In this document: one piece after another, positions 1 through 19,949 of the stretch
Layout of the letters: each line of letters begins with the position of its first letter
How positions within the stretch are numbered: position 1 is the first letter of the stretch
Source of the DNA: an uncultured Gemmatimonadaceae bacterium
GTDB taxonomy: Bacteria; Gemmatimonadota; Gemmatimonadetes; Gemmatimonadales; Gemmatimonadaceae
DNA length: 64,000 nucleotides
Reading direction: 5' to 3'
Assembly (NCBI GenBank): GCA_963781585.1
Contig: CAWAGQ010000004.1
Span: 352,001 to 416,000 of the forward strand
Program-made: the position numbers and the translations under genes
The notes under the pieces: generated by a model
The model's input: only the letters and a program-made list of their open reading frames with translations
Databases searched by the model: none
Told to the model about the DNA's origin: nothing

Positions 1-870
1 GTTGATATCGTGGGGCGGTGGACCGATGAGCTGGCGCGCAACCCGGATAGCCTCTCGTTCCTTCGGCTGGCTGACGAGCTCCGTCGCCGCCGTGCCCTTC
101 CGGAGGCGCGGACGGTGGCCCTGCGCGGACTCGAACGACATCCGTATCTCGCAGACGCCCACGATATGCTCGCGCGCGTGTATGCCGATGATGGAGAGAC
201 GCAACGCGCGCGCGACGAGTGGGAGATGGCTCTGCGCATCGATCCCGATCATCTGGAATCGCTGAAGGGGCTCGGATTCCTGGCGTTCGCGCGCGGAGAC
301 CTGGCGGGCGCGGAACGGCACCTCCGCCGCGCCCGCTCCCAGGGCGATCCCGATGCCGGACTTGCCACTGCGCATCGACGCGTCATGGAGGCGATGCGCC
401 GGGCGTCGCGCGGGCACCCCGAGGAGTCCGTCCCCCACAACGGGACTGGCACGGCGGCCCGCAACGGTAACGGGTCGCGACCCCGTGCGGCCGCACCACC
501 GAACCGGGCACGCGAACTCTTCGCCCCCCTGCTCGGCGAAGAAGACGGCACGGCGCTGCTCATCGACGCGGACGGCCTCGTCATCGCTGGTGCGTACGTG
601 GACGAAACGGGCCGTGAGATCGGCGACGAAATCGGCGCTGAACTCTCCGGCGTGAGTGACGAGGCGGCGCGAGCCCTGATCCACTTGCGGCTCGGGACCT
701 GGGAATCGCTGCTGATCGAGGCGCAGCATGCCACAGTGGGACTGGCGCCGGCCAGAGACGGCGCCGTGGTACTCGTGGCGGCGGCGCGCGATGCACACGT
801 CGGCCTGGTGCGCCGGCTGCTGATGCAGGCGCGTACTCGTGCGCGGACCTGGATGGCGGGTGCATCGTGA
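1..870 (+). CDS. TPR-repeat protein with C-terminal roadblock/LC7 (MglB-like) domain, 5' partial
   Basis: Frame is open from base 1. TPR-like helices (AHDMLARVYADDG..., EMALRIDPDHLESLKGLG), a low-complexity linker, then a roadblock pattern (ALLIDADGLVIAG...LLIEAQHATVGL...VGLVRRLL). Confidence 0.8.
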   Translation, partial: VDIVGRWTDELARNPDSLSFLRLADELRRRRALPEARTVALRGLERHPYLADAHDMLARVYADDGETQRARDEWEMALRIDPDHLESLKGLGFLAFARGDLAGAERHLRRARSQGDPDAGLATAHRRVMEAMRRASRGHPEESVPHNGTGTAARNGNGSRPRAAAPPNRARELFAPLLGEEDGTALLIDADGLVIAGAYVDETGREIGDEIGAELSGVSDEAARALIHLRLGTWESLLIEAQHATVGLAPARDGAVVLVAAARDAHVGLVRRLLMQARTRARTWMAGAS

Positions 871-1214
871 GCGGACCCTTCGACGCCATGCTGTCCGAGC
901 TCGCGCGAGTGCGAGGCGTGCGCGCAGCCCTGCTGGCCACCGAGAGCGACGGGCTCGCGGCGGCAGGGATTGCGGCAACAGGGGTGCCCGAAGACGCGCT
1001 GGCCGCGTTTGGCATGGCGCTCCTGCGGCGGGCGCGGTTGGCGAACGAAGCGGCGGGATATGGCGCAACGCTGTTCGTGGCGCTGGATGCCGAGCACGGG
1101 CGGCTGCTTGTCGCCGCCCGCGGCGACCTCGCGATCGTAGTTCTGGCGGAGCGCGACGCCGGCACCGGTCTGGTGCGCATCGCCATGCTGCGTGCGATGA
1201 GCGGACTCCCGTGA
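867..1214 (+). CDS. Roadblock/LC7 domain protein
   Basis: 115 aa with GVRAALLATESDGL...LAIVVLAERDAGTGLVRIAM, typical of roadblock proteins. GTGA overlap with the upstream gene. Confidence 0.8.
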   Translation: MSGPFDAMLSELARVRGVRAALLATESDGLAAAGIAATGVPEDALAAFGMALLRRARLANEAAGYGATLFVALDAEHGRLLVAARGDLAIVVLAERDAGTGLVRIAMLRAMSGLP

Positions 1215-1666
1215 GCACGACCATGACCACCTTCACGGAACCCCTCCACGCGTTCGCCCACGATGCGCGGGTGCGGCTGGCCCTGGTGCTCGAATCCAGT
1301 GGACAGGTGCTCGCGCAGCACGGTTTCACACGGTCACTCGACGTCATGACCGCCTGTTCGCTTGCCGCAGCCATCCATGCCTCGGCTGCCGAGCTTGGTC
1401 GCGAACTCGGTGGGACAGCGTTCGGCCCGCTGCATCACGCCGGCGACGCGCGTCAGCTCTTTCTGGCGCCGGTCCTGTGCGGCGGCCGGACAATCCTGCT
1501 GCTGGCCGTGTTCGACGGGGCGAGCTCCCTCGGCATGGTCCGGCTGTTCTGGGCAGAGTTCGCACACCGCGTGGGCGATGCCATGGCGCCCCGGGCACGC
1601 GTCCAGGCCACGGAATTCGAGCGCGACCTCGAACACAACCTCGACGCGCTGTTCGGCAGGGTTTGA
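1211..1666 (+). CDS. mglB: MglB-like roadblock protein (putative GAP of MglA)
   Basis: LVLESSGQVLAQHG...LAAAIHASAAELGRELG...LLAVFDGASSLGMVRL resembles MglB and lies directly upstream of mglA. Start is GTG 1211 or ATG 1223. Confidence 0.75.
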   Translation: MSTTMTTFTEPLHAFAHDARVRLALVLESSGQVLAQHGFTRSLDVMTACSLAAAIHASAAELGRELGGTAFGPLHHAGDARQLFLAPVLCGGRTILLLAVFDGASSLGMVRLFWAEFAHRVGDAMAPRARVQATEFERDLEHNLDALFGRV

Positions 1667-1668
1667 CG

Positions 1669-2274
1669 ATGCCGGTCGTCAACTATCCGTCGCGCGAAAT
1701 TACCTGCAAGATCGTCTACTACGGGCCGGGACGTTCGGGCAAGACCACCAACCTGCAGTACATCCACACGCGGGTTCCGGAGGACCGGCGCGGCAGGATG
1801 GTCTCGGTGGCCACGCAGGGCGATCGCACGCTGTTCTTCGATTTTCTTCCGCTCGATCTGGGGAGCATCTCGGGCTTCACGACGCGATTCCAGCTATACA
1901 CCGTTCCGGGCCAGGTGTATTACCGGTCCACCCGTCGCCTGGTGCTGCGTGGCGCGGACGGCGTGGTGTTCGTCGCCGATAGCCAGCGCCGCCAACTCGA
2001 GGAGAATGTCGAGAGCCTCCGCGACCTGCACGAGTTGCTGGCCGAGCAGGACGTGGACCCGCGGAGCCTGCCTCTGGTCCTCCAGTACAACAAACAGGAC
2101 TTGCCACGGGATCTCATCCTGAACGCCGGCGAACTGGACGAGGCGCTCAATTTCCGGAGCGCGCCGAGCTTTGCGGCCGACGCCCTCGGTGGTGCCGGCG
2201 TCTTCGAAACCCTTCGCCGCATGTCCGAGCTGGTGCTGCGACGCCTCAGCGCGCCTGCAGCAGCCGGGAGATAG
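1669..2274 (+). CDS. mglA: MglA-family small Ras-like GTPase
   Basis: KIVYYGPGRSGKTTNL (G1), DRTLFFDF (G2 with intrinsic Arg), QLYTVPGQ (MglA-type G3), QYNKQD (G4). Confidence 0.93.
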   Translation: MPVVNYPSREITCKIVYYGPGRSGKTTNLQYIHTRVPEDRRGRMVSVATQGDRTLFFDFLPLDLGSISGFTTRFQLYTVPGQVYYRSTRRLVLRGADGVVFVADSQRRQLEENVESLRDLHELLAEQDVDPRSLPLVLQYNKQDLPRDLILNAGELDEALNFRSAPSFAADALGGAGVFETLRRMSELVLRRLSAPAAAGR

Positions 2275-2277
2275 CAC

Positions 2278-4068
2278 GTGATCGACGGCCGCTTTCGCTT
2301 CGACAACTTCATCGTCGGCGCGTCCAATCGCCTGGCGGTGTCGGCGGCGCGCGCGGTGGCCGAAACGCCCGGCGTGGTCTACAACCCGCTGGTCATCTAC
2401 AGCGCGTCCGGCCTGGGAAAGACGCACCTGCTGGCCGCGCTTGGCTACGCCACGCGCGAACTGCACCCCGAGCGCGACGTGGAGTACCTGACGCTCGAAC
2501 GCTTCGTGGACGAACTGCATGCCGCGGTCGCCAGCGGACGCCCCGATGCCCAGTTGCGGCGCTACCAGCACGTCCAGACGCTGCTGCTGGACGACGTGCA
2601 GTTTCTCACCGGACGGGTCGAGACGCAGACGGAACTCCTCCGCATCTTCAACGCGGTTCAGGAGAATGGCGGACAGATCGTGATGACGAGCGATCGGCCG
2701 CCGGCGGAGATCGGCGACGTCGATGCGCGGCTCCTGAGCCGGATGTCGGGCGGCCTGATCGTCGACATCGGCGAACCGGAGTACGAGACCCGGGTCGCGA
2801 TTCTCCGTCACAAGTGCGCCGAGCGAGGGCTGACCTTTGTGCCCGGTGTACTCGAGCAGCTGGCGAGCGCGCCGGCCGGGAGCGTGCGCGAACTCCAGGG
2901 GGCCCTGAATCGGGTTGCGGCACAGCAGTCCATCAGCGACGCGCCGCTCGGGATTCAGGACGTGCGCGTTGCCCTGGCAGGACGGAGCGAAGAGGGACCG
3001 GACGATGAGTACCAGAGCTTCCTGAACGAGGTCGCGGCGACAGTATCGCTGACGGTCGATCCGTGGCGCATCCGGCTGGGAGAAATGGTGTCTCGCTGGA
3101 GCGGCGAAGGGTTTCAGACCACGATGCTGGAGCGTGCGATGGCGGCCAGCGAGGCCCCCGATATCGATGCGCTCGATGCCCGGTTCGCCGCGGCCGCTGC
3201 GCGACTACGGGCGCTCGAAGCCGAAGCGGCCCGTCTCGATCCGAAGCTCATCGAGCTGGCGGCCTTTCGCGATCCCGAACGGGTGGCCGACGCCGAGACG
3301 GTCGTGCTGCGCGCGCTGGCCGCCTACGATCCGCCCCCCGGCCCCGACCGGCGCTTCGGCATCGAACAGTTCGTCGTGGGGGAGCGCAATCGCCTCGCGC
3401 TGCGCGGCGCGGCGGAAGTGATCGCCGTGCCGGGGGCGCGGTACAATCCGCTCTACATCCACGGCGCCACGAGTTCCGGCAAGACACACCTCCTGCACGC
3501 CATCGGCAACGCGCTGGCGGCGCGCGACGGCGGCGGGTGGACGGTCGCCTGTGTCACGGCCCAGCAGTTCACCGATGGACTGATCGAAGCCATCCAGGAG
3601 GCCGAGCTCGAGCGCTGGCGCATGCGGTACCGGGCGGTCGACGCGCTGCTGATCGATGACGCCCAGGCGCTCAGCGGCAAGGAGCGGTCGCAGGACGAGC
3701 TCTTCCATCTCTTCAACGCCTTTCATGACAGCGGCAAGCAGATCGTGCTCGCCGCGGACGTGGCGCCGTCCCAGCTGGTGGAGCTTGCGGCCCGGCTGCG
3801 CTCCCGCTTCGAGGGGGGGCTGGTGGTCGAGCTGGGTCGCGTGTCGCGGGCCGAGCGGGTGGCGCGCTACACGCCCGTCCCTATCGGTGCGGAGGCGGCC
3901 GCCCCCACCATCGACGCCTGGTTCGAAGAGGCGGTCGAGTCACCGCCCGATGCACTGGCCAGCCAGCTCGAGTCGTTAGGCGGCGTCGACTTCTTCTTCC
4001 TCGATCCCGAGAAGTGCATCACCGAATGGCCGGGTGTGGACGGACGCATCATCGAGGAGCTTCGCTGA
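2278..4068 (+). CDS. DnaA/Hda-family protein with two tandem DnaA-like AAA+ modules and no DnaA domain IV
   Basis: Two copies of the DnaA domain III pattern: FDNFIVGASNRLA...YNPLVIYSASGLGKTHLL...LLLDDVQFL...RLLSRMSGGL and FVVGERNRLA...YNPLYIHGATSSGKTHLL...LLIDDAQAL...RLRSRFEGGL. Confidence 0.88.
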   Translation: MIDGRFRFDNFIVGASNRLAVSAARAVAETPGVVYNPLVIYSASGLGKTHLLAALGYATRELHPERDVEYLTLERFVDELHAAVASGRPDAQLRRYQHVQTLLLDDVQFLTGRVETQTELLRIFNAVQENGGQIVMTSDRPPAEIGDVDARLLSRMSGGLIVDIGEPEYETRVAILRHKCAERGLTFVPGVLEQLASAPAGSVRELQGALNRVAAQQSISDAPLGIQDVRVALAGRSEEGPDDEYQSFLNEVAATVSLTVDPWRIRLGEMVSRWSGEGFQTTMLERAMAASEAPDIDALDARFAAAAARLRALEAEAARLDPKLIELAAFRDPERVADAETVVLRALAAYDPPPGPDRRFGIEQFVVGERNRLALRGAAEVIAVPGARYNPLYIHGATSSGKTHLLHAIGNALAARDGGGWTVACVTAQQFTDGLIEAIQEAELERWRMRYRAVDALLIDDAQALSGKERSQDELFHLFNAFHDSGKQIVLAADVAPSQLVELAARLRSRFEGGLVVELGRVSRAERVARYTPVPIGAEAAAPTIDAWFEEAVESPPDALASQLESLGGVDFFFLDPEKCITEWPGVDGRIIEELR

Positions 4069-5684
4069 TGGCCATCCGCGGCAGTCTCCGGGAAGCGAGC
4101 CTCCCCGATGTCCTCCAGCTGCTCGCCATGGGGAAGAAGACCGGCTGCCTCTCGGTCACCCACCGTCAGAGCTTCGGGACGATCTTCTTCGACAGTGGAC
4201 GCATCTGCTACGCCTCGATCGTCAACCGGCGTGACCGGCTCGGCGATCTGCTCCTGAAGCACGGCCTGATCACCCGTCCGCAGCTCGACGCCGCCGTCGC
4301 CGAACAAGTCGACCGACCCGACCGGCGTCTCGGTGAGATCCTCATCGCCGACGGCCTCCTGCAACCCGAGCAGTTGCGGGAGTACATCACCCATCAGATC
4401 CAGGAAGCAGTCTACTTCCTGTTCACCTGGACGCAGGGGACGTTCAGCTTCGAGCCCGATGTGCGCCCCGACACCCGGGACCTCCTGGTGTCGATCGGCC
4501 CCGAGTCCCTGCTGCTCGAGGGAGCGAGACGGGTGGACGAATGGAGTCTGATCGAAAAGAAGATTACCAGCTTCGATCTCATCTTCGCCCTCGATCGCGA
4601 GCACCTGACCGAAAGCCACGTCGACCTGACGCCCGAACAGGAGATTCTCGTTCCGCTCCTCGACGGACAGCGCGATGTCAGCGCGCTCACGGAAGAAACC
4701 GGGATGGACGACTTCGAGGTGGGCAAGGCGCTGTTCGGACTCCTCTCTGCCGGTTTCCTGCATCGCGCGGGACGCAGCACCGGCCCCGAGACCGTTGCCG
4801 GCGAGTCCCGCATCCTCGAGCACCGCAACCTCGGAGTCGCGTTCTACAGGACAGGCATGTACGACGAGGCGCTCCGCGAGTTCCGGCGGGTCGTCGAGCT
4901 GCAGCCGGGGGACCAGGTCGCAGAATTCCACATCGGTCTGGTGGCGCTGCGCCAGGACCGCCTGGATGACGCGATCCGCACATTTCGCGCGATTGGCGCT
5001 CGTGAGGCGGCACCGGCCTCGGTGTTCGTCAATCTCGCCCACGCCCTCGAGCGGTCGGGTCGATACGACGAGGCCCGCGCCGCGCTGGACGACGCGGAGC
5101 GGTTGCAGCCGCAGGAGCCGATGAGCGAGCTCGCACACGGCGTGCTGTCGTTGCGCCGGGGCGATGTGGAGGGCGCAGATCGACACCTGCAGTGTGCCGC
5201 CGAACGGTGGGGCGGGAAGGCGCGACCGGCAGCATGGTTTCACTACGCCGGTCTGGTGGCGGCGCTGCGCGGCGAGCTCGATCGAGCCACGGAGGTTCTG
5301 GAGCACGGGGTGGTGGCGTATCCACACGTCGCCGCACTGTACAACAACCTGTCCGTTGCCCTGGAGCGTCGCGGGCGCTACGCGGAAGCGTTGGCGGCGG
5401 CAGAGCGGGGGAGCGTGGAAGATCCGGCGCTGCCGCAGCTCCACAAGAACCTCGGCGATCTGCAGTACCGCGCCGGGCACTACGACGAGGCGCTCGACGC
5501 CTATCAGCGTGCGGTCCGGTACGACCCGGAGCTGGGCGGCGACGTCCATCTGAAGATGGGGAACGTGCGGTATCGACGCGGCGAGCGCGACGATGCGATG
5601 CGCTGCTGGGAGCGTTCGCTCTCGCTTGCGCCGGACAATCCCATGGCGAGGAACAACCTCGAGACCGCGCGACGGCTGACGTGA
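4068..5684 (+). CDS. DUF4388 (PatA-N-like) + MshEN + TPR-repeat protein
   Basis: N-terminal MAIRGSLREASLPDVLQLLAMGKKTGCL...WTQGTFSF (DUF4388), two RLGxxLLxxGL motifs, and multiple C-terminal TPRs. TGATG coupling to the upstream gene. Confidence 0.85.
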   Translation: MAIRGSLREASLPDVLQLLAMGKKTGCLSVTHRQSFGTIFFDSGRICYASIVNRRDRLGDLLLKHGLITRPQLDAAVAEQVDRPDRRLGEILIADGLLQPEQLREYITHQIQEAVYFLFTWTQGTFSFEPDVRPDTRDLLVSIGPESLLLEGARRVDEWSLIEKKITSFDLIFALDREHLTESHVDLTPEQEILVPLLDGQRDVSALTEETGMDDFEVGKALFGLLSAGFLHRAGRSTGPETVAGESRILEHRNLGVAFYRTGMYDEALREFRRVVELQPGDQVAEFHIGLVALRQDRLDDAIRTFRAIGAREAAPASVFVNLAHALERSGRYDEARAALDDAERLQPQEPMSELAHGVLSLRRGDVEGADRHLQCAAERWGGKARPAAWFHYAGLVAALRGELDRATEVLEHGVVAYPHVAALYNNLSVALERRGRYAEALAAAERGSVEDPALPQLHKNLGDLQYRAGHYDEALDAYQRAVRYDPELGGDVHLKMGNVRYRRGERDDAMRCWERSLSLAPDNPMARNNLETARRLT

Positions 5685-6196
5685 CGACCCGGACCGCCAC
5701 TCCTGCCGACGCCGCAGCGGGCGCCGAGATCGTGGTCAACGTCGCCGACTTCGGCGTGGCGCGCGAGCACGGCGTGCTCGCGACGTCAGGACTGGGATCG
5801 TGCGTGGCGATCATCATCTGCGATCGCATCGCACGGGTCGCGGCCATGGCGCACATTCTGCTTCCGGAACCGGACTTCCGTCGAGGGTCGCCCAATCCGG
5901 CAAAGTACCCGCAGACGGCCGTGCCGATGCTGCTCGACGAAATGCACCGGCTGGGCGCGATGGGGCCCTTCGAAGCGAAGCTGGCCGGAGGCGCAAGCAT
6001 GTTCGGCGCCCTGCTCGCAAGCGGCGTGAACATGGGTGAGCGCAACGTCGAGGCGTCGCGCCGGGCATTGGCGGATGCGCGCATCGCGCTGGTGGCCGAA
6101 GACGTGGGCGGAGGTCATGGACGGAGCGTGTTCGTGGACGTCGCGTCGGGGCGCGTGCGGGTGAGTTCTCTCCAGCGGGGCGACCGTGTCCTCTGA
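5681..6196 (+). CDS. cheD: Chemoreceptor glutamine deamidase CheD
   Basis: GLGSCVA (catalytic Cys), MAHILLP (His), AKLAGGASMF, GERNVEA, EDVGGGHGR. Confidence 0.92.
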   Translation: MTTRTATPADAAAGAEIVVNVADFGVAREHGVLATSGLGSCVAIIICDRIARVAAMAHILLPEPDFRRGSPNPAKYPQTAVPMLLDEMHRLGAMGPFEAKLAGGASMFGALLASGVNMGERNVEASRRALADARIALVAEDVGGGHGRSVFVDVASGRVRVSSLQRGDRVL

Positions 6197-7286
6197 ACGC
6201 CGCACGGTGCTGGTCGTCGACGACAGCGCGCTCGTCTGCCGCGTGGTCGCCGACCTGATCGAGGCCAGTGCCGACTTCCGCGTGGCCGGCATCGCCCGTG
6301 ACGGCTTGGACGCCATTCGCAAGCTGCACAGCCTCGAGCCCGACCTCGTCACGCTCGACGTGCAGATGCCGGATCTCGACGGCCTGCAGACACTCGGCTA
6401 CATCATGAGCGAGGCGCCGCGACCCGTGATCATGCTCAGCGCGCTGGATTCGCTGGGCGGTGCGGATCTGACCATCAGGGCGCTCGAGCTGGGTGCGGTG
6501 GATTTCGTGCGCAAGACCGGGCCTGACGACGCGCTCGATCCGAGAACGCTCCGCGATCGTCTGCTTCGGGCGCTCCGGGGGGCGCGAAACGTGAACCTCC
6601 GCGCCGCATCGGTGCTGGCCCGGCCGCTCGCCGCCCGCAAGTCCGCGCGCCCGGGTGAGAAGCCCGCCACTCATGTCGTGGCGATCGCCGCGTCCACCGG
6701 AGGGCCGCGGGCGCTCGCCGAAATACTGCCGGCGCTTCCCGGAGACCTCGGTGCGGCGGTTCTGGTGGTGCAGCACATGCCGGCCGGGTTCACTGAGAGC
6801 CTGGCGCGCCGCCTCGACCGTCTCGCATCACTTGCCGTGGGCGAGGCGGTAGACGGGGAGGTCCCGCTTGCCGGCCATGCCTACATCGCGCCGGGGGGCC
6901 GCCATCTGACGCTCAGTCGTGACGGTGGGGCCACGCGCCTGGCGGTCGGCGCCGGTGCCGCTGTTCGCGGAGCGCGACCGTCGGCCGACCTGCTGTTCGA
7001 CTCGGTCGCCGAACATCTCAGGGCGGCGGCGGTGGGTGTGGTACTCACCGGGATGGGGCACGACGGCGCCGCGGGCCTGAAGCGCATGCGTGGCGCGGGC
7101 GCCTACGCCCTCGTTCAGGATCGCGGGACCTCCACCGTATACGGCATGCCGATGACGGCGCTCGCACACGCCGGTGCAGATCGGGTGGTGCCGCTGTCGG
7201 AGATGGCGCCCGCGATCCTGGCCGCCCTGGAGGCGCGGGGAATGACGCGCCGCGATGTGACCACCGAAGATCCGATTCTGTCCTGA
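6186..7286 (+). CDS. cheB: Chemotaxis response regulator/methylesterase CheB
   Basis: Receiver domain (VVDDS, TLDVQMP, FVRK) plus esterase triad motifs ASTGG, VQHMP, LTGMGHDG. Confidence 0.95.
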   Translation: MSSERRTVLVVDDSALVCRVVADLIEASADFRVAGIARDGLDAIRKLHSLEPDLVTLDVQMPDLDGLQTLGYIMSEAPRPVIMLSALDSLGGADLTIRALELGAVDFVRKTGPDDALDPRTLRDRLLRALRGARNVNLRAASVLARPLAARKSARPGEKPATHVVAIAASTGGPRALAEILPALPGDLGAAVLVVQHMPAGFTESLARRLDRLASLAVGEAVDGEVPLAGHAYIAPGGRHLTLSRDGGATRLAVGAGAAVRGARPSADLLFDSVAEHLRAAAVGVVLTGMGHDGAAGLKRMRGAGAYALVQDRGTSTVYGMPMTALAHAGADRVVPLSEMAPAILAALEARGMTRRDVTTEDPILS

Positions 7287-7355: not shown

Positions 7356-7886
7356 ATGCCCGAATCCGACGTGCTCCAGAACGTTGCTCCGCCAGCCCCG
7401 CCGCATGACGCATCGCCGCTGCGTTTTCGCGAGCGCGTGCGGCAGCGCATCGGCACGGCCGACCTTCTGCTCTTCCGGGTGGGACGGGAGGGGTTCGGAA
7501 TCGAGATTCGCGCGGTGGACGAAGTAGTGGAGTCGCCGCGACTGCGGGTTCTTCCCGATGCCCCGGCGACGCTGCTCGGCGTATTCACGCTGCGCGAGCA
7601 GCTGCTCCCGCTGTACGCGGCATCGCTGGTGCTCGGTCAGGAAGCCGAGGCGCCGGACCTGGCACTCGTCATGCGCAGCGGATTGCGGCGGGTGGGGCTG
7701 GCGGTGGACGACGTGGAAGAAGTTGTGGCCGTTTCCATGACCGACCTGCGGGATCCGCCTCCGGGAATTGGCGACGACGATGTTGTGGCCGGACTGGTCT
7801 GGCGCGATGGCCGGATCATCACCGTGCTCGATGCCCGCGCCCTGGTTGCGGCATGCGCCTCGGTGGCGCATCCGGCGGTTCCATGA
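7356..7886 (+). CDS. cheW: CheW-like coupling protein
   Basis: LLFRVGREGFGIEIRAVDEV, LLGVFTLREQLLP, VGLAVDDVEEV, ITVLD. Confidence 0.85.
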   Translation: MPESDVLQNVAPPAPPHDASPLRFRERVRQRIGTADLLLFRVGREGFGIEIRAVDEVVESPRLRVLPDAPATLLGVFTLREQLLPLYAASLVLGQEAEAPDLALVMRSGLRRVGLAVDDVEEVVAVSMTDLRDPPPGIGDDDVVAGLVWRDGRIITVLDARALVAACASVAHPAVP

Positions 7887-8359
7887 CCACCATGACCGGC
7901 AGCTCGCGCATCATCACGTTCCGTCTCGGCGACGATCTGTTCGCGGCCGACATCTTCGCCGTGGAGCGGGTGCTGCGATACGACGCGCCCCGGGCAATCC
8001 CGAACGTACCCGACTGGATCCGCGGCGTGATCGAGTACCAGGGGCGCGTCGTGCCGGTCGTGGACCTCCGGCGTCGCTTCGGCCTTCCCGAGGCCGACGT
8101 TGGTCCGCAGGCCCGGATGCTGGTCCTCTCGTCAGGCGGGGAGTGGGTGGCGGTCATCGTCGACCTGGTTCTCGACGTGCGGCCACTCGAGGAGGCGGCA
8201 CTGTCGCCGCCGCCCGCGCTGTTCCGCGGGCTGGCCGGCGAATACCTGCGGGGTCTGACGCGTCGGGGAGAGTCGCTGGTGGTTGTGCTGGACGTGGACC
8301 GCCTGCTCTCCAGTCAGGACCGGCTGGTGCTGGCGCCCGCCCGGGGGGCGGATGCCTGA
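7883..8359 (+). CDS. cheW: CheW-like coupling protein
   Basis: IITFRLGDDLFAADI, IPNVPDWIRGVIEYQGRVVPVVDLRRRFG, VVVLDVDRLL. Confidence 0.92.
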   Translation: MTTMTGSSRIITFRLGDDLFAADIFAVERVLRYDAPRAIPNVPDWIRGVIEYQGRVVPVVDLRRRFGLPEADVGPQARMLVLSSGGEWVAVIVDLVLDVRPLEEAALSPPPALFRGLAGEYLRGLTRRGESLVVVLDVDRLLSSQDRLVLAPARGADA

Positions 8360-12593: not shown

Positions 12594-12623
12594 TTGACGA
12601 ATTGCCGTCTGGGTCGCTAGGTT
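12594..12623 (+). promoter_or_regulatory. Putative dcw operon promoter
   Basis: TTGACG, 18 nt, TAGGTT just upstream of rsmH. Confidence 0.45.
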
Positions 12624-12633
12624 GTCGCGGGCA

Positions 12634-13572
12634 GTGACCCACTCTGATACCTACGCGAGCGCATTCCACACTCCGGTCCTCGTACACGAGGTCGTTGAGC
12701 TGCTCGGCAACGCTGATCATGTCCTGGACTGCACACTCGGCGGCGGCGGGCACGCGCTCGCGCTGCTCGAGCGGGGCGCCCGGGTAACCGGGCTCGATCG
12801 CGATCCCGAGGCGGTGCGCGCCGCGTCCGCACGGCTCGCGTCGTACGCCGGGACAGGACAGTTCCGCGCTGCGCAAGGCAGCTTTGGCGATCTGAACGCC
12901 ACGGCGATTGCCGATGATGAGCGATTTGCCGGCATCCTGCTCGACCTGGGCGTGTCGTCGCATCAGATGGATTCACCGGCGCGTGGTTTTACGTTCCGAA
13001 CGGACGCGCCGCTCGACATGCGGATGACTGTCGATACGCCGGACGACGCCGCTCGTCTCGTCAACGAGAGCAGCGAACGAGAACTGGCGGCGATCTTCAG
13101 AGACTATGGCGACGTGACGAAGGCCGGACGGCTGGCCCGAGAGATCGTCAGGCGTCGAGGGCGACGACCGTTTCGCATCAGCGACGATCTGGTGGACGCG
13201 ATACGGGCCGTGCTCGGTCCACGCAGCGGACCCGCCGAGTTCGCCCCCGTCTTCCAGGCGCTGCGAGTCGCGGTGAACGATGAGCTGGGCGCGCTCGAAC
13301 GCGCGCTGCCAGTGCTCCGCGACCGGCTTTCCGCGGGCGGCACCATGGCGGCGATCACGTATCACTCGGGCGAGGATCGCCTGGTGAAGCGGGCGTTTCG
13401 CGACTGGAGCGCGGCGTGTGTGTGCCCGCCACGGCAACCAGTCTGCACCTGCCGCGGCCGGCCGCTGGGGCGATCGCTGACGCGTCGTCCGATGCTCCCC
13501 AGCGACGCTGAGAGCGCCTCGAATCCGCGCGCGCGCAGCGCGCACCTGCGGGCATGGCAAAGCGCCGCGTAA
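12634..13572 (+). CDS. rsmH: 16S rRNA m4C1402 methyltransferase
   Basis: HTPVL, DCTLGGGGH, DLGVSSHQ, PLDMRM, FQALRVAVNDEL, YHSGEDR, NPRARSA. Confidence 0.96.
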   Translation: MTHSDTYASAFHTPVLVHEVVELLGNADHVLDCTLGGGGHALALLERGARVTGLDRDPEAVRAASARLASYAGTGQFRAAQGSFGDLNATAIADDERFAGILLDLGVSSHQMDSPARGFTFRTDAPLDMRMTVDTPDDAARLVNESSERELAAIFRDYGDVTKAGRLAREIVRRRGRRPFRISDDLVDAIRAVLGPRSGPAEFAPVFQALRVAVNDELGALERALPVLRDRLSAGGTMAAITYHSGEDRLVKRAFRDWSAACVCPPRQPVCTCRGRPLGRSLTRRPMLPSDAESASNPRARSAHLRAWQSAA

Positions 13573-13856
13573 AGCTGCGCGGGCGTACCGTGGTCGCGCT
13601 GGTGTTGGGCGCGTTTCTGGCGGTAGCCACCAGCATCGTGTGGCGGCGCTCGCTGGGCAGCGTGCAGGCGCGGCATCTGCACGATCTCCGGACCCAACTG
13701 GCCGATCTGCAGACGCAGCGCGCTCAGCTTCAGGCCGACGTCCATCGCGCGACGAGCCGACCCTATCTGGCGCCGGTGGTGGCGCGCCTCGGGCTGGTGG
13801 TGCCGAACGACAGTCAGGTCATTGTGCTGCCGATGCCGCGGCAACCGGAGCGTTAG
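13554..13856 (+). CDS. ftsL: Cell division protein FtsL-like
   Basis: Basic N-terminus, single TM and leucine-zipper coiled coil, located between rsmH and ftsI. Confidence 0.75.
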   Translation: MAKRRVKLRGRTVVALVLGAFLAVATSIVWRRSLGSVQARHLHDLRTQLADLQTQRAQLQADVHRATSRPYLAPVVARLGLVVPNDSQVIVLPMPRQPER

Positions 13857-13860
13857 GCGC

Positions 13861-15924
13861 ATGGTGCGGGAGCGACGACTTTCGGTGGTCCATGGGGTGC
13901 TGCTGCTGCTCGCGCTCGCGCTCGTGGCACGCAGCGGCTACGTGCAGCTGTGGCAGGGCGCGAAGTGGGACGCCCGGGCCGAGCGTCAGCAGGTCTCGCG
14001 GGATACGCTGGCCGCGCCACGGGGTGAGATCCTCGACCTGGCTGGCGTGCCGCTGGCCGAAAGCCAGGTGCACGTTCAACTCGCGATCGTGCCGGGCGAG
14101 GTCAAGGAGCCGCGGCGGCTGGCGCGCTCGCTGCAGCACCTCGGCGTGGACGCCGCCACGTTGCGCCGGGTCGCCGACCAGAAGCGGAAGTGGGTTCCGG
14201 TGGGCGGGACCTTCGCGCCGTCCGACGTGAACGGGCTGCGGGTGATGCCGGGCGTGCACGCGACCGACGTCGGGCAGCGCTCCTACCTGCCCTCCGACGG
14301 ATTGCGGAAGATCGTCGGACGCACCGGTCCCGGCGGCGTTGCCATCGACGGGATCGAGCTGGCACTGGATTCACTCCTGCGTGGCGAGCGCGGTACCGCG
14401 GCGGCACTGCTCGATGCGCGTGGGACGCGGTACGAATCGCCCGAGATGCTCACCGCGCCGCCGCTGGGGGGACACAGCATCACCCTCACCGTGAGCTACG
14501 TGGTACAGGATATTTGCGACCGGGCGCTGGCCGATGCCACCGAAAGACTGAACGCGACCGGCGGCGACATCGTGGTCCTCGATCCACGCGACGGCGAGAT
14601 CCGCTGTCTGGCCAGTCGGCGATCGGGCCAGATCGCGACGGCCAGTACCGCGCTCACGGAACCGTTCGAGCCGGGGTCCACGCTCAAGCCGCTCTACGCC
14701 GGCCGGCTGATCGAGTCGGGCAAGGCCAGGGTCTCCGACGTCATCGAGACGTTCAACGGAGTGTACCGGACTCACGGCCGGACGATCAACGACGTGCACA
14801 AGGCGGAACGGCTCTCGCTGGCCGACGTCATCCGCTTCTCCAGCAACGTGGGCATCGTGCGCTTCACCGAACGACTCTCGGCCCGCGAGATGTACGAGAC
14901 GCTGCGCGACTTCGGGTTTGGTACGCCGACCGGCGTGACCTATCCGAGCGAGGCGCCGGGGATCCTGCACGAACCCGCGACCTGGTCGGCGCAGTCGCAG
15001 GCGTCGCTCGCCATCGGGTACGAGTTGGCGGTGACGCCGCTGCAGCTGGCGACCGCGTACGCTGCGCTTGCCAATGGCGGGAGGTTGCTGGAACCGGCGC
15101 TGATTCGCGAAATCCATGATCCCGACGGGGCGCTGGTGTACACGCACCGGCCGTCACTCGTCAGGCAGGTGCTGGCCCCCGAAACGACGCGGACCCTGCG
15201 ACAGATCCTTGCCACCGTGGTGGACAGTGGCACGGCGACCGAGGCCGGGCTCTCGTCATTCGAGTTCGGCGGCAAGAGCGGCACGGCGCGTCGTGCTGCG
15301 GGCGGGACCTATGGTCGCGGCAGCTACACATCGTTGTTCGTGGGGCTGTTTCCGGCCGAGGCACCGCAGTACGTGGTGCTGGTGAAGCTCGACAACCCGC
15401 AGGGGAGCTATTATGGCGGGAAGGCAGCGGCGCCAGTGGCGAGGGCCGTGGTGGAGGCTGCCATCGCTGCGCGTGATGCAGCGCTCGACCAATCGAGCCT
15501 GGCACTGCAGAAGGCCCCCTACGTTCCCCCCGACGTCGATCGAGCGCCCACCGGCCAGGTCGCCTCCTCCGGGCGCAGCGCACCGGGGATGGTGGAGTCG
15601 CCGTCGGCGGACGATTCAGGCAACCGGTCGCACGGCGAGGGCGACAGCCCGCAGATACCAGGCGATGCGTCGACCGGCGTTGCTGCGGACGGGATCTGCT
15701 GTCCGCCGGCGCGATTCGACATCGGCAAGTTGGCGCCGGACACCGCGTCCTCCATGGATCACGTCGTTGTCCCGGATGTTCGCGACGTTCCGCTTCGCAC
15801 GGCGGTGCGCGAACTCCATCGCGCCGGCCTCCGCGTCGTCCTGGTCGCGGGCGGGCCGCCCATGACTCCCTCTCCGGGGACCGCGGTGGCACGCGGATCG
15901 CTGGTGCGGCTCGGCCGGCCATGA
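13861..15924 (+). CDS. ftsI: Class B penicillin-binding protein (FtsI) with C-terminal PASTA-like domain
   Basis: RGEILD, EPGSTLK (SxxK), SSN, GKSGT. A low-complexity linker precedes the VVPDVR PASTA-like tail. Confidence 0.9.
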   Translation: MVRERRLSVVHGVLLLLALALVARSGYVQLWQGAKWDARAERQQVSRDTLAAPRGEILDLAGVPLAESQVHVQLAIVPGEVKEPRRLARSLQHLGVDAATLRRVADQKRKWVPVGGTFAPSDVNGLRVMPGVHATDVGQRSYLPSDGLRKIVGRTGPGGVAIDGIELALDSLLRGERGTAAALLDARGTRYESPEMLTAPPLGGHSITLTVSYVVQDICDRALADATERLNATGGDIVVLDPRDGEIRCLASRRSGQIATASTALTEPFEPGSTLKPLYAGRLIESGKARVSDVIETFNGVYRTHGRTINDVHKAERLSLADVIRFSSNVGIVRFTERLSAREMYETLRDFGFGTPTGVTYPSEAPGILHEPATWSAQSQASLAIGYELAVTPLQLATAYAALANGGRLLEPALIREIHDPDGALVYTHRPSLVRQVLAPETTRTLRQILATVVDSGTATEAGLSSFEFGGKSGTARRAAGGTYGRGSYTSLFVGLFPAEAPQYVVLVKLDNPQGSYYGGKAAAPVARAVVEAAIAARDAALDQSSLALQKAPYVPPDVDRAPTGQVASSGRSAPGMVESPSADDSGNRSHGEGDSPQIPGDASTGVAADGICCPPARFDIGKLAPDTASSMDHVVVPDVRDVPLRTAVRELHRAGLRVVLVAGGPPMTPSPGTAVARGSLVRLGRP

Positions 15925-17441
15925 ACCGGGAGATCTCGTCCGCCGCCATCGTGCGGGCGCTGGAGGAGGCGGGAGAGCTCGTTGGCGTGCGCGGGGACCT
16001 GCCGGCGTCCTTCACGGCACTCTCCGACGACAGCCGGACCGCAACGCCGGGATCGCTCTTTGTCGCCGTGCGCGGTCAGGCGCGCGACGGACACGACTAT
16101 CTGGACGCCGCGCGGCGGGGCGGAGCGGTGGCGGCGGTTGTAGAGGACGCGTCGCGCACCGAACTGCCCACGGTCGCAATCCGGGACAGCCGGCGGGCGG
16201 CGGCGGTGGTCGCGGCCGCGGCCTACGACTGGCCGGCGCGACAACTCGTGGCAGTCGGCGTCACGGGCACGAGCGGCAAGACGACCACCGTCACGATGCT
16301 CCGCCACCTGCTGGATGAACCCGATGCCGCCAGCGCGTCGATCGGAACGTTAGGCGTCCTGACGGGCCGCGTGGGCCGACCCCTGCCGGGCGGCAGCGGG
16401 CTCACCACCCCCGGTCCGGTGGAACTGCAGCGCGTGCTCCGGATGCTGGTGGATGCCGGCGTCCGGCGTGTGGCAATCGAGGTTTCGTCGCACAGTCTCG
16501 ATCAGCGTCGCGTCGAGGGCGTGGCGTTCGCGGTCGCGGTGTTCACGAACCTTTCGCACGAGCATCTGGACTATCACGGCGACATGGCGTCGTACCTGAA
16601 CACCAAAGCGAGGCTCCTTCAACTGCTCGCGCCTGACGGTACGGCGGTGATCAACGCGGACGATCGGGCGTGGGATGCGCTCCCGCCGACCCGGCGGCGG
16701 CTGCGGTTCGGGGTGGGCACGACCGGCGGCGTCGATGTCACGGCGCGGGACGTCCGCTTCACGGCCGCCGGGAGCACGTGGCGGCTGGTGGCTGGCGCGG
16801 AATCCGCGGCGGTGCAGCTCCCCCTGCTGGGCGATTTCAACGTGATGAACGCGCTGGCGGCCGCGACGGCGGCGCGCGCTCTCGGACTCGCGGTGAGCGA
16901 CATCGCCCTCAGGTTGTCGTCGCTGTCGCAGGTGCCGGGACGGCTCGAACGGCTGCTGGATCGGCCGGCGGTGCTCCGCGACTACGCGCACAAGCCCGAC
17001 GCGCTGCGGGCGGTGTTGCGGGCGGTGCGGCCGTTCGTGCGGGGCCGCCTGATCGTGCTGTTCGGATGCGGCGGCGACCGCGACCGGAGCAAGCGTCCGG
17101 TGATGGGGGCGATCGCCGAACAGGAGGCGGATGTGGTGATTCTGACCAGCGACAATCCGCGCACCGAGGATCCGGAGCGGATTCTCGACGAGATCGAGGT
17201 GGGAATGTCCCGGCCGCACGAACGCATCGAGGACCGTCGGACGGCGATCGCCCGGGCGGTGCAGATCGCACGCGCCGATGACGTGGTGCTGCTGGCGGGG
17301 AAGGGGCACGAGACGTACCAGATCCGGGGGACGGAGGCGCTGCCGTTCGACGAGCGGGAGGTGGTGGGGGCGGTGGTGGCCGCGGCAGCAGACCCGGGCG
17401 GCGTGGTGCAGCGAATTGGGCGCGGAGGGGCGGCGGCGTGA
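15921..17441 (+). CDS. murE: UDP-MurNAc-tripeptide synthetase
   Basis: GVTGTSGKTT, EVSSH, HLDYH, DYAH, GCGGDRD, DNPR (meso-DAP type), LAGKGHE. Confidence 0.95.
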   Translation: MNREISSAAIVRALEEAGELVGVRGDLPASFTALSDDSRTATPGSLFVAVRGQARDGHDYLDAARRGGAVAAVVEDASRTELPTVAIRDSRRAAAVVAAAAYDWPARQLVAVGVTGTSGKTTTVTMLRHLLDEPDAASASIGTLGVLTGRVGRPLPGGSGLTTPGPVELQRVLRMLVDAGVRRVAIEVSSHSLDQRRVEGVAFAVAVFTNLSHEHLDYHGDMASYLNTKARLLQLLAPDGTAVINADDRAWDALPPTRRRLRFGVGTTGGVDVTARDVRFTAAGSTWRLVAGAESAAVQLPLLGDFNVMNALAAATAARALGLAVSDIALRLSSLSQVPGRLERLLDRPAVLRDYAHKPDALRAVLRAVRPFVRGRLIVLFGCGGDRDRSKRPVMGAIAEQEADVVILTSDNPRTEDPERILDEIEVGMSRPHERIEDRRTAIARAVQIARADDVVLLAGKGHETYQIRGTEALPFDEREVVGAVVAAAADPGGVVQRIGRGGAAA

Positions 17442-18802: not shown

Positions 18803-18806
18803 AGGC

Positions 18807-19949
18807 ATGCTGCACTTTCTTCTGACGCCGCTCATTCCGCACTTCTCGGTGCTGCGCCTGATCAACTACATCTCGTTCCGGGCGGCGGCGGCAGCCATGA
18901 CCGCGCTCCTGCTCGCGTTCTTCATCGGACCCTCCATCATTCGGCGGTTGCACACATTGCGGGTGCGGCAGGGCGTTCGTGAAGGGACTCCCGACTCGCA
19001 CCTGTCCAAGGCGGCGACGCCGACCATGGGGGGGCTGATCATCCTGGCGTCGGCGATGCTTGCGGCGCTGCTCTGGACTAGGCTCGACAACCGGTACGTG
19101 CTGGTCGCCGTTCTGGTGACGATCTGGATGGGGGGGATCGGCTTCCTGGACGACTACCTGAAGCTGCGGCAGAAGCGCGAAGGGAAGGAAAACGTCGGGC
19201 TGGTGGAGCGGTACAAGCTGGCGGGCCAGATCACCATCGGCATCATCGTCGGCGTGCTGCTGTGGCTGTGGCCGGTCACCAACCTGCCGGGGGCATCGTC
19301 CACGGTGCCGTTCTTCAAGTACGTTCTGGTCGTGCCGGCGTCGGCGGCCCTGGCCTGGCTGTACGTGCCGTGGGTGACGTTCATCCTGACCGGCACGAGC
19401 AATTCCGTGAACCTCACCGACGGTCTGGACGGACTGGCGGCGGGCCTTGCCGCGATTGCCCTCTCCACGTTCGCGCTGTTCGCCTACGTGATGGGGCGCT
19501 TCGACGCGAGCGCCTATCTCCAGCTCTTCTACCTGCGCGATGCCGGCGAGCTCACCGTATACTGCATGGCCCTGGTGGGGGCGTGTATCGGGTTCCTGTG
19601 GTTCAACGCACACCCGGCGCAGGTCTTCATGGGCGACACCGGAGCGTTGGCGTTAGGCGGTGCGATCGGCGCGGTGGCCCTGCTGCTCAAGAGCGAGTTT
19701 CTGCTGCTGTTCGTCGGGGGCGTGTTCGTGGCCGAAACGGTCTCGGTGATCCTGCAGCGGCTGGTGTTCAAGGTCCGGCGCGCCCGGCGCGGGCTGGAAT
19801 ACGCGCGGGCGAATCGGCTGTTTCGACGGGCCCCGCTCCATCATCATTTCGAGCTTGCCGGTTGGAAGGAGGCGCAGGTGGTCGTACGATTCTGGATCCT
19901 CGGCATTCTCTGCGCGTTCCTGGCGCTGTCCACCCTGAAACTGCGATGA
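18807..19949 (+). CDS. mraY: Phospho-N-acetylmuramoyl-pentapeptide transferase
   Basis: TPTMGG, GFLDD, NSVNLTDGLDGL, FMGDTG, APLHHHFE. Confidence 0.97.
   Translation: MLHFLLTPLIPHFSVLRLINYISFRAAAAAMTALLLAFFIGPSIIRRLHTLRVRQGVREGTPDSHLSKAATPTMGGLIILASAMLAALLWTRLDNRYVLVAVLVTIWMGGIGFLDDYLKLRQKREGKENVGLVERYKLAGQITIGIIVGVLLWLWPVTNLPGASSTVPFFKYVLVVPASAALAWLYVPWVTFILTGTSNSVNLTDGLDGLAAGLAAIALSTFALFAYVMGRFDASAYLQLFYLRDAGELTVYCMALVGACIGFLWFNAHPAQVFMGDTGALALGGAIGAVALLLKSEFLLLFVGGVFVAETVSVILQRLVFKVRRARRGLEYARANRLFRRAPLHHHFELAGWKEAQVVVRFWILGILCAFLALSTLKLR

Follow-up and report, generated by a model that had tools for sequence, protein, structure and literature searches.

To our knowledge, the DnaA fold, found in DnaA, Hda and helicase loaders, has been regarded as devoted to replication alone. 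Hda consists of one such module, about 230 aa long, carries an N-terminal clamp-binding motif and inactivates DnaA-ATP. MglA-type polarity modules have, as far as we know, so far been described as systems of a GTPase, a GAP and effectors. For the PATAN domain, PMC4316618 cites a paper by Makarova et al. (2006). Passages of PMC4316618 state that group 1 MglA occurs in Gemmatimonadetes and that PATAN genes are sometimes located near mglA or mglB. For the cyanobacterium Synechocystis, parts of 10.1101/2021.06.11.447907 describe PATAN as the output domain which derives from chemosensory systems and binds the pilus motor PilB1/PilC.

The present locus belongs to a phylum-wide family whose members possess two copies of the DnaA fold, stripped of origin recognition, inside a small-GTPase polarity and chemosensory operon. 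The features of the locus are listed in Table 1, with positions counted in the window, i.e. the whole 64-kb stretch of DNA that was analyzed. According to our main reading, to which we give about an even chance of being right, the tandem protein (dDnaA) is a DnaA-derived tandem AAA+ ATPase without initiator function and a fixed subunit of an MglA/Roadblock/PATAN-TPR polarity module in a Che cluster. The fold that opens replication origins seems to have been reused for signalling in Gemmatimonadota.

Table 1. Features of the dDnaA locus, in order of position in the window.
Feature	Position (nt)	Strand	Remarks
TPR + Roadblock/LC7 protein	1..870	+	ORF runs past the 5' end of the window
Roadblock/LC7 (MglB-like) protein	867..1214	+	family match
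137-aa ORF	1252..1666	+	Roadblock-like by eye only
mglA orthologue, Ras-like GTPase	1669..2274	+	M. xanthus MglA 5ymx, E 6e-68, full length
dDnaA, tandem DnaA-domain-III protein	2278..4068	+	596 aa, GTG start
dDnaA module 1, complete DnaA domain III (core + lid)	2278..2952	+	aa 1-225
dDnaA family-specific helical domain between the modules	3004..3333	+	aa about 243-352
dDnaA module 2, alpha/beta core only of DnaA domain III	3334..3840	+	aa 353-521
dDnaA segment YTPVPxGAEAAAPTIDxxF in place of a second lid	3868..3924	+	lineage-specific
dDnaA C-terminal docking motif (predicted)	3982..4065	+	aa 569-596; [SDN]xE[KR]xxxxW[P]....RxxE[ED]xx-COOH
PATAN (DUF4388)-TPR protein	4068..5684	+	538 aa
CheD	about 5690-6196	+	start uncertain
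CheB	6186-7286	+	
CheW, first copy	7356-7886	+	
CheW, second copy	7853-8359	+	

At the level of domain organization, a Pfam scan detects two stretches of Bac_DnaA (PF00308; E 5e-102) in dDnaA, and neither DnaA_N (PF11638) nor Bac_DnaA_C (PF08299) at E<=0.01. This is the pattern that a preliminary description of the locus had expected, and the motifs which it quoted for both modules and the tail are all present in the translation where it had placed them. dDnaA and its homologues begin at the first residues of domain III and have no N-terminal extension. The NCBIfam model of DnaA (TIGR00362) likewise matches two stretches, each confined to the AAA+ part of the profile; the best one covers positions 105-336 of 437, and all matches of dDnaA end at 336. 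Its score of 441.5 bits, against an equivalog cut-off of 343.9, is the sum of these two partial matches; passing this threshold is an annotation trap and no evidence of initiator function. Because dDnaA passes the cut-off and its homologues are named accordingly (in many cases 'chromosomal replication initiator protein DnaA' by JGI), automated origin and dnaA calls in Gemmatimonadota can be misled.

Module 1 contains Walker A (SASGLGKT, aa 42-49), Walker B (LLLDD, 102-106), sensor I (TSDRPP, 137-142), the box VII arginines R151 and R155 (RLLSRMSGG, 151-159) and the sensor II arginine R204 (SVRELQGALNR, 202-212). In an alignment to solved structures, its residues 1-223 match residues 110-332 of Bacillus subtilis DnaA (E 7e-52). 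Module 2 keeps the Walker A lysine K402 (GATSSGKT, 396-403), the Walker B pair D460/D461 (LLIDD, 457-461) and the box VII arginines R506 and R510 (RLRSRFEGG, 506-514); the lid is lost, sensor II is absent, and residues 353-521 align only to the alpha/beta core of the solved Thermotoga and Aquifex DnaA structures. The segment which takes the place of the second lid is conserved in the forms of about 600 aa only and is predicted with low to moderate pLDDT. Relatives of about 640-670 aa retain a second lid with a sensor-II-like motif S-[VI]-R; the earlier statement that module 2 lacks lid and sensor II is thus right for the present lineage, but does not extend to these longer relatives. Judged from the residues, the AAA+ set of Walker A lysine, Walker B acidic pair and arginine finger is present in both modules. 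What had been taken for a helical linker is a conserved domain of about 110 aa rather than a mere spacer: it contains conserved DEFxxF and FRDP motifs as well as W263, W274 and G278, is all helical in the predicted structure (pLDDT 85.9), and has neither a fold match in the PDB (best E 8.4) nor a look-alike in the Atlas. The AF2 model of the whole protein (mean pLDDT 88.5) has domain III of B. subtilis DnaA as its top PDB match (TM 0.94 on the target); as the pTM is only 0.52, the monomer model does not fix the mutual placement of the two modules.

The family comprises at least 120 full-length homologues with 52-95% identity. A genome scan, whose query was a three-sequence alignment of linker, module 2 and tail, confirmed 104 relatives; 80 loci were kept, 77 of them titled Gemmatimonadota. 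Since the scan patterns derive from close relatives, any family members outside this phylum would escape the scan; those members that carry names (names from the homologue search, taxa from the Atlas) all belong to Gemmatimonadota or Gemmatimonadales. For the motif census we used 66 complete ORFs from the genomes of other species plus the window sequence (n=67), which omits L032 and L080, whose ORFs end out of frame, and 12 loci with ORFs cut by contig ends. With this many complete ORFs and full-length homologues, the concern that the fusion might be an assembly artefact is refuted. In module 1, GKT, the DD pair and R204 are invariant (67/67 each), and R151 and R155 are found in 66/67 and 64/67 sequences; module 2 possesses K402 in 65/67, D460 in 66/67, D461 in 64/67, and R506 as well as R510 in 65/67. 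One family member of 738 aa (P0214) has a receiver domain where the tail would be.

The phylogeny of the modules is based on a quick search under LG+G4 with 164 columns and 199 rows, no outgroup, and the loci rows thinned to the window and 14 out of 35 loci. Module 1 forms a clade of 74 rows, 70 of which are module 1 (SH-aLRT 97). Module 2 falls into two groups (36 rows with support 95, 39 rows with support 78) that the tree does not join into one clade, and the canonical DnaA rows are closer to module 1 than to module 2; the tree does not give the order of duplication. Two of the rows labelled canonical DnaA, P0242 and P0266, are fragments of the dDnaA family.

The gene neighbourhood links dDnaA to a polarity module. 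In the window, 3 nt separate the mglA stop from the dDnaA start, the Shine-Dalgarno-like GGGAG of dDnaA falls within the 3' end of mglA, and the dDnaA stop overlaps the ATG of the PATAN-TPR gene (TGATG). Gaps at the 58 loci with all three ORFs are mostly -4 to +8 nt between mglA and dDnaA and -1 nt between dDnaA and the PATAN-TPR gene. mglA is located directly 5' of dDnaA in 60/62 loci, the two misses (L011, L044) being adjacent by ORF coordinates, and the PATAN-TPR gene directly 3' in all of 67 loci. A TPR-Roadblock gene lies upstream in 55/56 loci, and CheD, CheB and CheW are all found in 43 out of 53 relatives with enough flanking DNA. Family scans gave no match for the ORF at 1252..1666. 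One relative (L006) possesses upstream genes for CheA, CheC/X, a TPR protein of 905 aa and another PATAN-TPR protein. The order mglA - dDnaA - PATAN-TPR and the coupling of stops and starts recur throughout the sampled Gemmatimonadota loci; in a single phylum, part of such synteny could stem from common descent rather than from function. This fixed operon in related loci, together with the absence of domains I and IV, supports the preliminary view that dDnaA is not the replication initiator. In the window and the surveyed loci, the cluster lies directly 5' of the dcw division cluster, and no pilus genes were found beside it.

The C-terminal tail, earlier described as acidic, is indeed there, but it is more than an acidic stretch: the last 28 or so residues, which include FFFLDPEKCITEWP (aa 572-585), form a nearly invariant motif. 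E578, K/R579, E593 and E/D594 are kept in 67/67 sequences, W584 in 65/67 and R590 in 64/67. A complex of MglA, the PATAN-TPR protein and dDnaA residues 520-596 was predicted with a score of 0.82 (best of three controls: 0.00). The mark passed by this score is reached by 116 out of 157 solved complexes and by 2 out of 215 mismatched pairs, rates which hold only roughly here because the prediction involved three chains and alignments that we had built ourselves. The pass may also partly reflect likeness, since many solved structures show a peptide bound to TPR repeats. Between runs, at least 61% of the contacts recur, and the pLDDT of the partner is at least 49. All confident contacts connect the tail (569-596) with residues 283-493 of the PATAN-TPR protein (nt 4914-5546), recurring at intervals of about 34 residues. 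According to this model, and to the model only, the C-terminal peptide of dDnaA would lie in the TPR groove of its neighbour. Conservation of the predicted TPR contacts did not significantly exceed that of the remaining TPR region, neither on average (0.70 vs 0.64; one-sided Mann-Whitney p 0.07) nor in the share of residues conserved to at least 90% (10/47 vs 43/242; Fisher p 0.35). No confident contact between tail and MglA was predicted, MglA having been given only dDnaA 520-596; this result does not speak against contacts of MglA with the rest of dDnaA. Hence, of the previously proposed nucleotide switch partnered with MglA, the context stands, with a true MglA orthologue next door; the partner that the model supports is instead the PATAN-TPR protein, via the tail.

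Under the main reading, the C-terminal peptide in the TPR groove would tether the ATPase to the PATAN-TPR adaptor. In the manner of DnaA, ATP and arginine fingers acting in trans may serve the two modules for closing on each other, for head-to-tail polymerisation, or for both. In this way dDnaA would act as an ATP-timed switch or scaffold which sets the state or the place of the PATAN-TPR/MglA complex; the analogy to PATAN regulators of cyanobacteria and to MglA of Myxococcus xanthus suggests that a polar machine, for instance type IV pili, would receive the output. A bolder version, which we regard as improbable, holds that the covalent pair of DnaA AAA+ modules polymerises with ATP, perhaps grips ssDNA, and plugs by its C-terminal peptide into the PATAN-TPR/MglA/Che system.

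The residues that DnaA uses on single-stranded DNA open another possibility. Parts of PMC10721633 report that K222, I190, I193, R202 and E228 of B. subtilis DnaA contact or capture ssDNA, and that none of these residues is universally conserved in DnaA. At the equivalent positions, module 2 has I/V in 64/67 sequences, I/L/V/M in 67/67, R in 64/67, K/R in 58/67 and E in 67/67; module 1 keeps them in part (R/K113 57/67, R/K93 54/67, E119 67/67), with His at the equivalent of I190 in 59/67. As far as residues can tell, these kept positions fit a DNA-linked role as well as a role purely in signalling. The modules could then have retained the ATP-dependent grip of DnaA on single-stranded or stretched DNA, and dDnaA would be a DNA-bound ATPase which, with a logic like that of ParA, uses the nucleoid as the reference for anchoring or positioning the PATAN-TPR/MglA/Che complex, or acts on DNA at a pilus or competence machine. 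Orphan DnaA modules elsewhere (P0174, P0180, P0244, P0246) occur in fusion with MshEN, which forms the N-terminal domain in pilus or secretion ATPases, and this also points in this direction; but in the domain tree these fusions group with canonical DnaA, i.e. in another clade than dDnaA. Furthermore, dDnaA is without the domain IV that would load it on duplex DNA, the histidine in module 1 replaces a reported contact residue, and the positions may be kept for structural reasons; that none of them is universal in DnaA itself also speaks against this reading. On balance we consider this explanation unlikely.

We judge slightly less probable still that dDnaA is a regulator of replication, as the preliminary description had suggested: its AAA+ faces and arginine fingers would let it enter DnaA-ATP filaments, where, like Hda, it would cap them or trigger hydrolysis, so that initiation would be coupled to polarity or chemosensory signals, or to the division genes nearby. 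No result here singles out, or excludes, an action on DnaA filaments. The full-length match of module 1 to domain III of B. subtilis DnaA, its position nearer to canonical DnaA in the tree, the box VII arginines in both modules and the dcw cluster directly downstream are what such a regulator might show. However, the Hda model (TIGR03420) gives dDnaA only 161.7 bits, below its cut-off of 194.8, and there is no N-terminal extension to carry the clamp-binding motif known from Hda. Beyond dDnaA itself, no dnaA, dnaN or origin-type genes are found in the window, and none in the surveyed loci; the coupled genes are mglA and PATAN-TPR, and for the invariant tail the prediction indicates a signalling adaptor as partner. 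As to canonical DnaA, a search seeded with the canonical representative P0252 (high G+C) returned names of the Chloroflexota/Limnocylindria type and no Gemmatimonadota; the canonical DnaAs in these searches carry PF08299.

Some distant representatives have lost the Walker A of module 2 (P0140, P0161, P0179, P0230, P0263), others the arginine fingers (P0152, P0155, P0198, P0231, P0241). The sensor I position of module 2 varies as well (five commonest residues, n=67: D 22, P 16, A 11, N 8, V 3), and the second lid is lost in this lineage. One could conclude that the DnaA folds are purely structural and that dDnaA is a catalytically dead scaffold, bridging the TPR protein and other partners. Against this speak the invariant Walker A, Walker B and sensor II residues of module 1, the Walker and arginine residues of module 2, which are kept in 64-66 of 67 sequences, and the invariance of G47, K48 and D105 across 79/79 diverse sequences, so that we hold the scaffold to be very improbable. 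Finally, that dDnaA is the replication initiator of the cell, or that an error of assembly or gene prediction joined two dnaA fragments, is suggested by the TIGR00362 pass and the JGI labels and has next to no probability, given that the score adds two partial AAA+ matches, that DnaA_N and Bac_DnaA_C are absent, and that the genomes of 66 other species contain this two-module ORF in full, flanked by the same genes.

If the main reading is true, an ATP-driven component would be added to MglA-type polarity modules, and the family would lend itself to studying how an initiator AAA+ module came to serve in signalling. The version with an ATP-polymerising, ssDNA-gripping protein would, if true, mean a direct physical link from the state of the chromosome or of replication to cell polarity, to the activity of pili or to the division machinery encoded next door.

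Compared with known systems, dDnaA shares with DnaA the DnaA-clade AAA+ fold, Walker A and B and the box VII arginines, and in module 1 only also sensor II; module 1 superposes on domain III of B. subtilis DnaA with TM 0.94. It differs from DnaA in having two modules per chain and lacking domains I and II and the HTH of domain IV, in adding the inter-module helical domain and the predicted TPR-docking tail, and in the location of its gene in an mglA/PATAN/Che operon, not at dnaA-dnaN. Like Hda/HdaA, it has domain III without the DNA-binding domain IV and keeps the arginine finger; unlike Hda, it is 596 aa long with two modules and no N-terminal extension, and scores far better with the DnaA model. 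Two AAA+ modules per polypeptide are also found in type II AAA+ proteins such as p97/Cdc48 and Rix7, but the modules of dDnaA belong to the initiator clade, not to the classic clade. A closer likeness to these proteins was rejected upon a poor structural match (TM 0.25-0.31, rmsd 15-18 A), and we found no evidence in dDnaA for stacked hexameric rings of their kind.

With the MglA/MglB systems of M. xanthus and Thermus thermophilus, together with the TPR effector SgmX, the cluster has in common an MglA orthologue and Roadblock and TPR proteins. A Che-type system adjoins it, much as Frz acts on MglA according to passages of PMC4316618 and PMC7668184. In contrast, mglA is here translationally coupled to the gene of a DnaA-like ATPase; the portions of the literature found on the M. 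xanthus and Thermus systems mention no AAA+ or DnaA-like component, and our literature search turned up no publication that links a DnaA-like ATPase to MglA or PATAN, or that describes the dDnaA family. The neighbour of dDnaA shares the PATAN/DUF4388 domain with PatA-type regulators such as Synechocystis PixE, but here PATAN is joined to TPR repeats in place of a receiver domain, and the prediction puts the tail of a DnaA-like ATPase into the groove of these repeats. The TPR clamp of Hop recognises the C-terminal EEVD peptides of Hsp70 and Hsp90. Similarly, the predicted arrangement of dDnaA would place a short acidic peptide at the extreme C-terminus (R-x-x-E-E-x-x-COOH) along the concave groove; it differs from the Hop clamp in the longer motif of about 28 residues, with invariant E-K and W-P, and in a partner that is a signalling adaptor.

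The protein under study, dDnaA, carries two DnaA-type AAA+ modules. All nine motif strings that the preliminary description had read in it recur in the translation at the reported positions, and the Pfam result which it anticipated was obtained: Bac_DnaA (PF00308) matches two stretches (E 5e-102), and neither DnaA_N nor Bac_DnaA_C is listed at E≤0.01. The observation is confirmed, far above chance. Among the NCBIfam models, the DnaA equivalog TIGR00362 also matches two stretches, both confined to the AAA+ part of the profile. Compared with solved structures, residues 1-223 align with residues 110-332 of B. subtilis DnaA (E 7e-52), and residues 353-521 with DnaA of Thermotoga and Aquifex, at its alpha/beta core. 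An AlphaFold2 model based on an alignment of 79 family sequences (mean pLDDT 88.5, pTM 0.52) is confident for the single domains, not for their relative placement; its top PDB match is domain III of B. subtilis DnaA (TM 0.94 on the target, E 2.5e-20).

Features of dDnaA and of its surroundings (nucleotide positions in the window unless residues are indicated)
Feature	Position	Strand	Remarks
dDnaA ORF	2278-4068	+	GTG start, 596 aa
Module 1	aa 1-225 of dDnaA	+	complete domain III
Inter-module domain	~110 residues between modules 1 and 2 of dDnaA		conserved, all-helical
Module 2	aa 353-521 of dDnaA	+	alpha/beta core, lid-less in the window's lineage
Tail motif	last ~28 residues of dDnaA		conservation census
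137-aa ORF	1252-1666	+	between Roadblock gene and mglA; Roadblock-like by eye
Complete division/cell-wall cluster	12622-28513	+	directly downstream of polarity/Che cluster
ComEC/Rec2 DNA-internalisation competence protein	49655-51871	+	TIGR00361, 247.6 bits versus cut-off 190

dDnaA is a real, conserved gene. At least 120 homologues of 548-646 aa share 52-95% identity with it over 92-100% of the query (100% in all but two), and those named by organism among the matches listed belong to Gemmatimonadaceae or Gemmatimonadota. A profile-free exhaustive scan of 1.84 billion cluster representatives yielded 19,218 matches at E≤0.001; 60 representatives among the best 150 of these passed the two-module filter. 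When one genome per GTDB species was scanned, 104 relatives were confirmed and 80 loci kept, whose titles name Gemmatimonadota (77), Candidatus Limnocylindria (1) and 'uncultured bacterium' (2). Gemmatimonadota is likewise the commonest taxon of the Atlas look-alike clusters. The locus titled Candidatus Limnocylindria (Chloroflexota; L043) shares its gene order with the other loci and is close to Gemmatimonadales loci, e.g. L027 and L057; its contig, 6.3 kb long, may be mis-binned. Two short database proteins, P0226 and P0227, join an unrelated N-terminus (by eye AsnC-like HTH and membrane-protein-like) to part of the module 2 region; both probably stem from a chimeric contig or gene call, and the scan alignment was built without them.

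Residue conservation was counted in 67 sequences, i.e. 66 complete ORFs of other species and the dDnaA of the window. In module 1, the Walker A G-K-T, the Walker B D-D and the sensor II R204 are present in all 67, and the box VII arginines R151 and R155 in 66 and 64, respectively; R155 aligns with R264 of B. subtilis DnaA, which is reported as the arginine finger (PMC10721633). Module 2 keeps K402 (65/67), D460 (66/67), D461 (64/67), R506 and R510 (65/67 each). Some distant representatives of the family possess a module 2 without Walker A, or both modules without the arginines. In the window's lineage, a conserved TPVPxGAEAAAPTID segment stands in for the module 2 lid; because a second lid, marked by an S-[VI]-R motif, is present in relatives of ~640-670 aa, the ancestor probably had two complete copies of domain III. 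The inter-module domain is marked by the motifs DEFxxF, W263, W274, G278 and FRDP, and has neither a fold match in the PDB (best E 8.4) nor a look-alike in the Atlas. In the tail, E578, K/R579, E593 and E/D594 occur in 67/67 sequences, W584 in 65 and R590 in 64. Its motif was found by a strict pattern in 33 of the 60 two-module representatives, and by eye in most others.

The genes upstream of dDnaA are tightly packed on the + strand and encode a TPR-Roadblock protein, a Roadblock protein, the 137-aa ORF and a GTPase, which matches M. xanthus MglA over its full length (E 6e-68) and is a true MglA orthologue. Only 3 nt separate the mglA stop from the GTG of dDnaA, with GGGAG 9 nt upstream of this GTG, and the TGA of dDnaA overlaps the ATG of a 538-aa PATAN(DUF4388)-TPR gene. 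Next come genes for CheD, CheB and two CheW; behind these lie TPR genes, peptidase-like genes and then the dcw cluster (mraW, ftsI, murE, murF, murD, ftsW, a fused murG/murC-like ORF, ftsQ, ftsA, ftsZ); mraW comes after the polarity/Che cluster in many relatives, too. The ComEC/Rec2 gene lies ~46 kb away from dDnaA. The 137-aa ORF has no match in Pfam or PDB, and its place in relatives is a gap of ~500 bp without a tblastn match at E 1e-5.

Gene order and strand are alike in the 80 related loci. PATAN-TPR directly follows the dDnaA homologue in 67/67 loci, MglA directly precedes it in 60/62 (in the two exceptions, the ORF coordinates place it next to the gene), and a TPR-Roadblock gene lies upstream in 55/56. 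Fifty-eight loci have all three ORFs, and in most of these the gap is -4 to +8 nt between mglA and dDnaA and -1 nt between dDnaA and PATAN-TPR. CheD, CheB and CheW are present in 43/53 loci and absent from 9/53; the mglA - dDnaA - PATAN-TPR core is kept throughout. In eleven loci (L019, L035, L046, L047, L049, L050, L055, L064, L069, L074, L077), none of these Che genes separates PATAN-TPR from the TPR gene that follows; the MglA match of L035, L047, L049, L050, L055 and L064 is far more divergent (38-46% versus 70-80% identity). In the related locus L006, the upstream 9 kb carry genes for CheA, CheC/X, a TPR protein of 905 aa and another PATAN-TPR protein.

In the monomer model, the tail shows little order (pLDDT 42-65). 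Because a disordered, invariant C-terminal peptide implies a partner and the neighbouring genes are translationally coupled, the last 77 residues of dDnaA were modelled together with MglA and PATAN-TPR, each with a 36-row alignment drawn from the loci. The complex scored 0.82 (runs 0.83, 0.82, 0.82; best of three controls 0.00), above a mark that is reached by 116/157 solved complexes and 2/215 mismatched pairs; these counts are only approximate here, because our own alignments and three chains were used. Contact agreement among runs was at least 61%, and partner pLDDT at least 49. All confident contacts link dDnaA 569-596 with PATAN-TPR 283-493, in blocks ~34 residues apart; this spacing equals the TPR repeat length, and the peptide is therefore predicted to follow the concave groove. 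The lowest-error pairs join E578/K579 to N426, N427, V430, Q457, K460, N461 and D464 of PATAN-TPR, which are 75-100% conserved; overall, the predicted contact residues do not significantly exceed the remaining TPR region in conservation (p 0.07). Because solved structures include many TPR-peptide complexes, likeness to these may have contributed to the pass. The prediction supports binding of the tail to PATAN-TPR.

The mechanism which we propose starts from what is established: the architecture, the operon, and catalytic and arginine-finger residues that are conserved in module 1 as well as in module 2. The tail would tether dDnaA to PATAN-TPR, as the complex model suggests; modules 1 and 2 would close up against one another or form polymers, as in DnaA, whose head-to-tail assembly is reported to be driven by ATP and a trans arginine finger (PMC10721633); and the resulting ATP-timed switch or scaffold would control the PATAN-TPR/MglA complex. 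We give this reading an even chance of being correct. Published work and a fusion protein speak for it. In Synechocystis, PATAN is described as the output domain, with the pilus motor as its binding target (10.1101/2021.06.11.447907), and M. xanthus MglA is reported to control the polarity of motility machines and to be wired to the Frz chemosensory system (PMC4316618). A two-module member of 738 aa, P0214, has a response-regulator receiver domain (aa 613-728) in place of the tail, which points to phosphorelay or chemosensory input.

A DNA-linked role, although unlikely, is suggested by the retention of DnaA ssDNA-contact positions, especially in module 2: equivalents of I190, I193, R202, K222 and E228, reported for B. 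subtilis DnaA to contact or capture ssDNA (PMC10721633), are kept there in 58-67 of the 67 sequences, but the I190 position of module 1 is a His in 59/67. That dDnaA regulates replication by capping DnaA filaments, as the preliminary description had offered, is quite improbable, given that Hda's hallmarks are missing and that no replication-gene context surrounds it; dnaA, dnaN and other initiation genes are absent from the 64-kb window. A catalytically dead scaffold is very improbable in view of the invariant Walker motifs, and the chance that dDnaA is an initiator or an artefact is close to nil.

In a tree built quickly from 199 domain rows, module 1 forms its own clade (SH-aLRT 97), and the more divergent module 2 falls into two groups. 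Canonical DnaA groups with several unusual architectures (P0129-type two-module, MshEN-fused and CHC2-zinc-finger/TPR-fused proteins), and orphan DnaA modules have therefore been co-opted at least twice. The P0129 type (P0129, P0151, P0164, P0172) is a second kind of tandem protein, with both modules near-canonical in look and placed with canonical DnaA in a 17-row clade (SH-aLRT 98); P0172 ends in a tail resembling the W-P motif of the dDnaA tail. In P0174 and P0180 (1876 and 1990 aa), P0244 and P0246, an N-terminal MshEN domain, of the kind seen in ATPases for pili or secretion, is fused to a single DnaA-type AAA+ module or to a pair of them; in the tree, these proteins sit with canonical DnaA, apart from the dDnaA family. 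P0228 (2150 aa) and P0238 (1754 aa) are giant proteins in which a CHC2 zinc finger of the DnaG type and greatly extended TPR arrays are combined with a DnaA AAA+ module at the C-terminus.

In databases, members of the family appear as 'DnaA/Hda family protein' or, erroneously, as 'chromosomal replication initiator protein DnaA', a name that JGI gives to many homologues. dDnaA also passes TIGR00362 (441.5 versus cut-off 343.9) by the sum of two partial matches; score and names together are a pitfall of annotation when dnaA or oriC is to be called in Gemmatimonadota. A full-text literature search, whose scope did not extend to the 2006 PATAN paper, found no paper on the family; dDnaA, an ATPase of the DnaA clade, is novel in its architecture and its functional neighbourhood. 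Compared with known systems, dDnaA stays below the threshold of the NCBIfam Hda model (161.7 versus cut-off 194.8), and it lacks domains I and IV, two of the features that define the DnaA initiator, but its modules share with the initiator the AAA+ fold of the DnaA clade.
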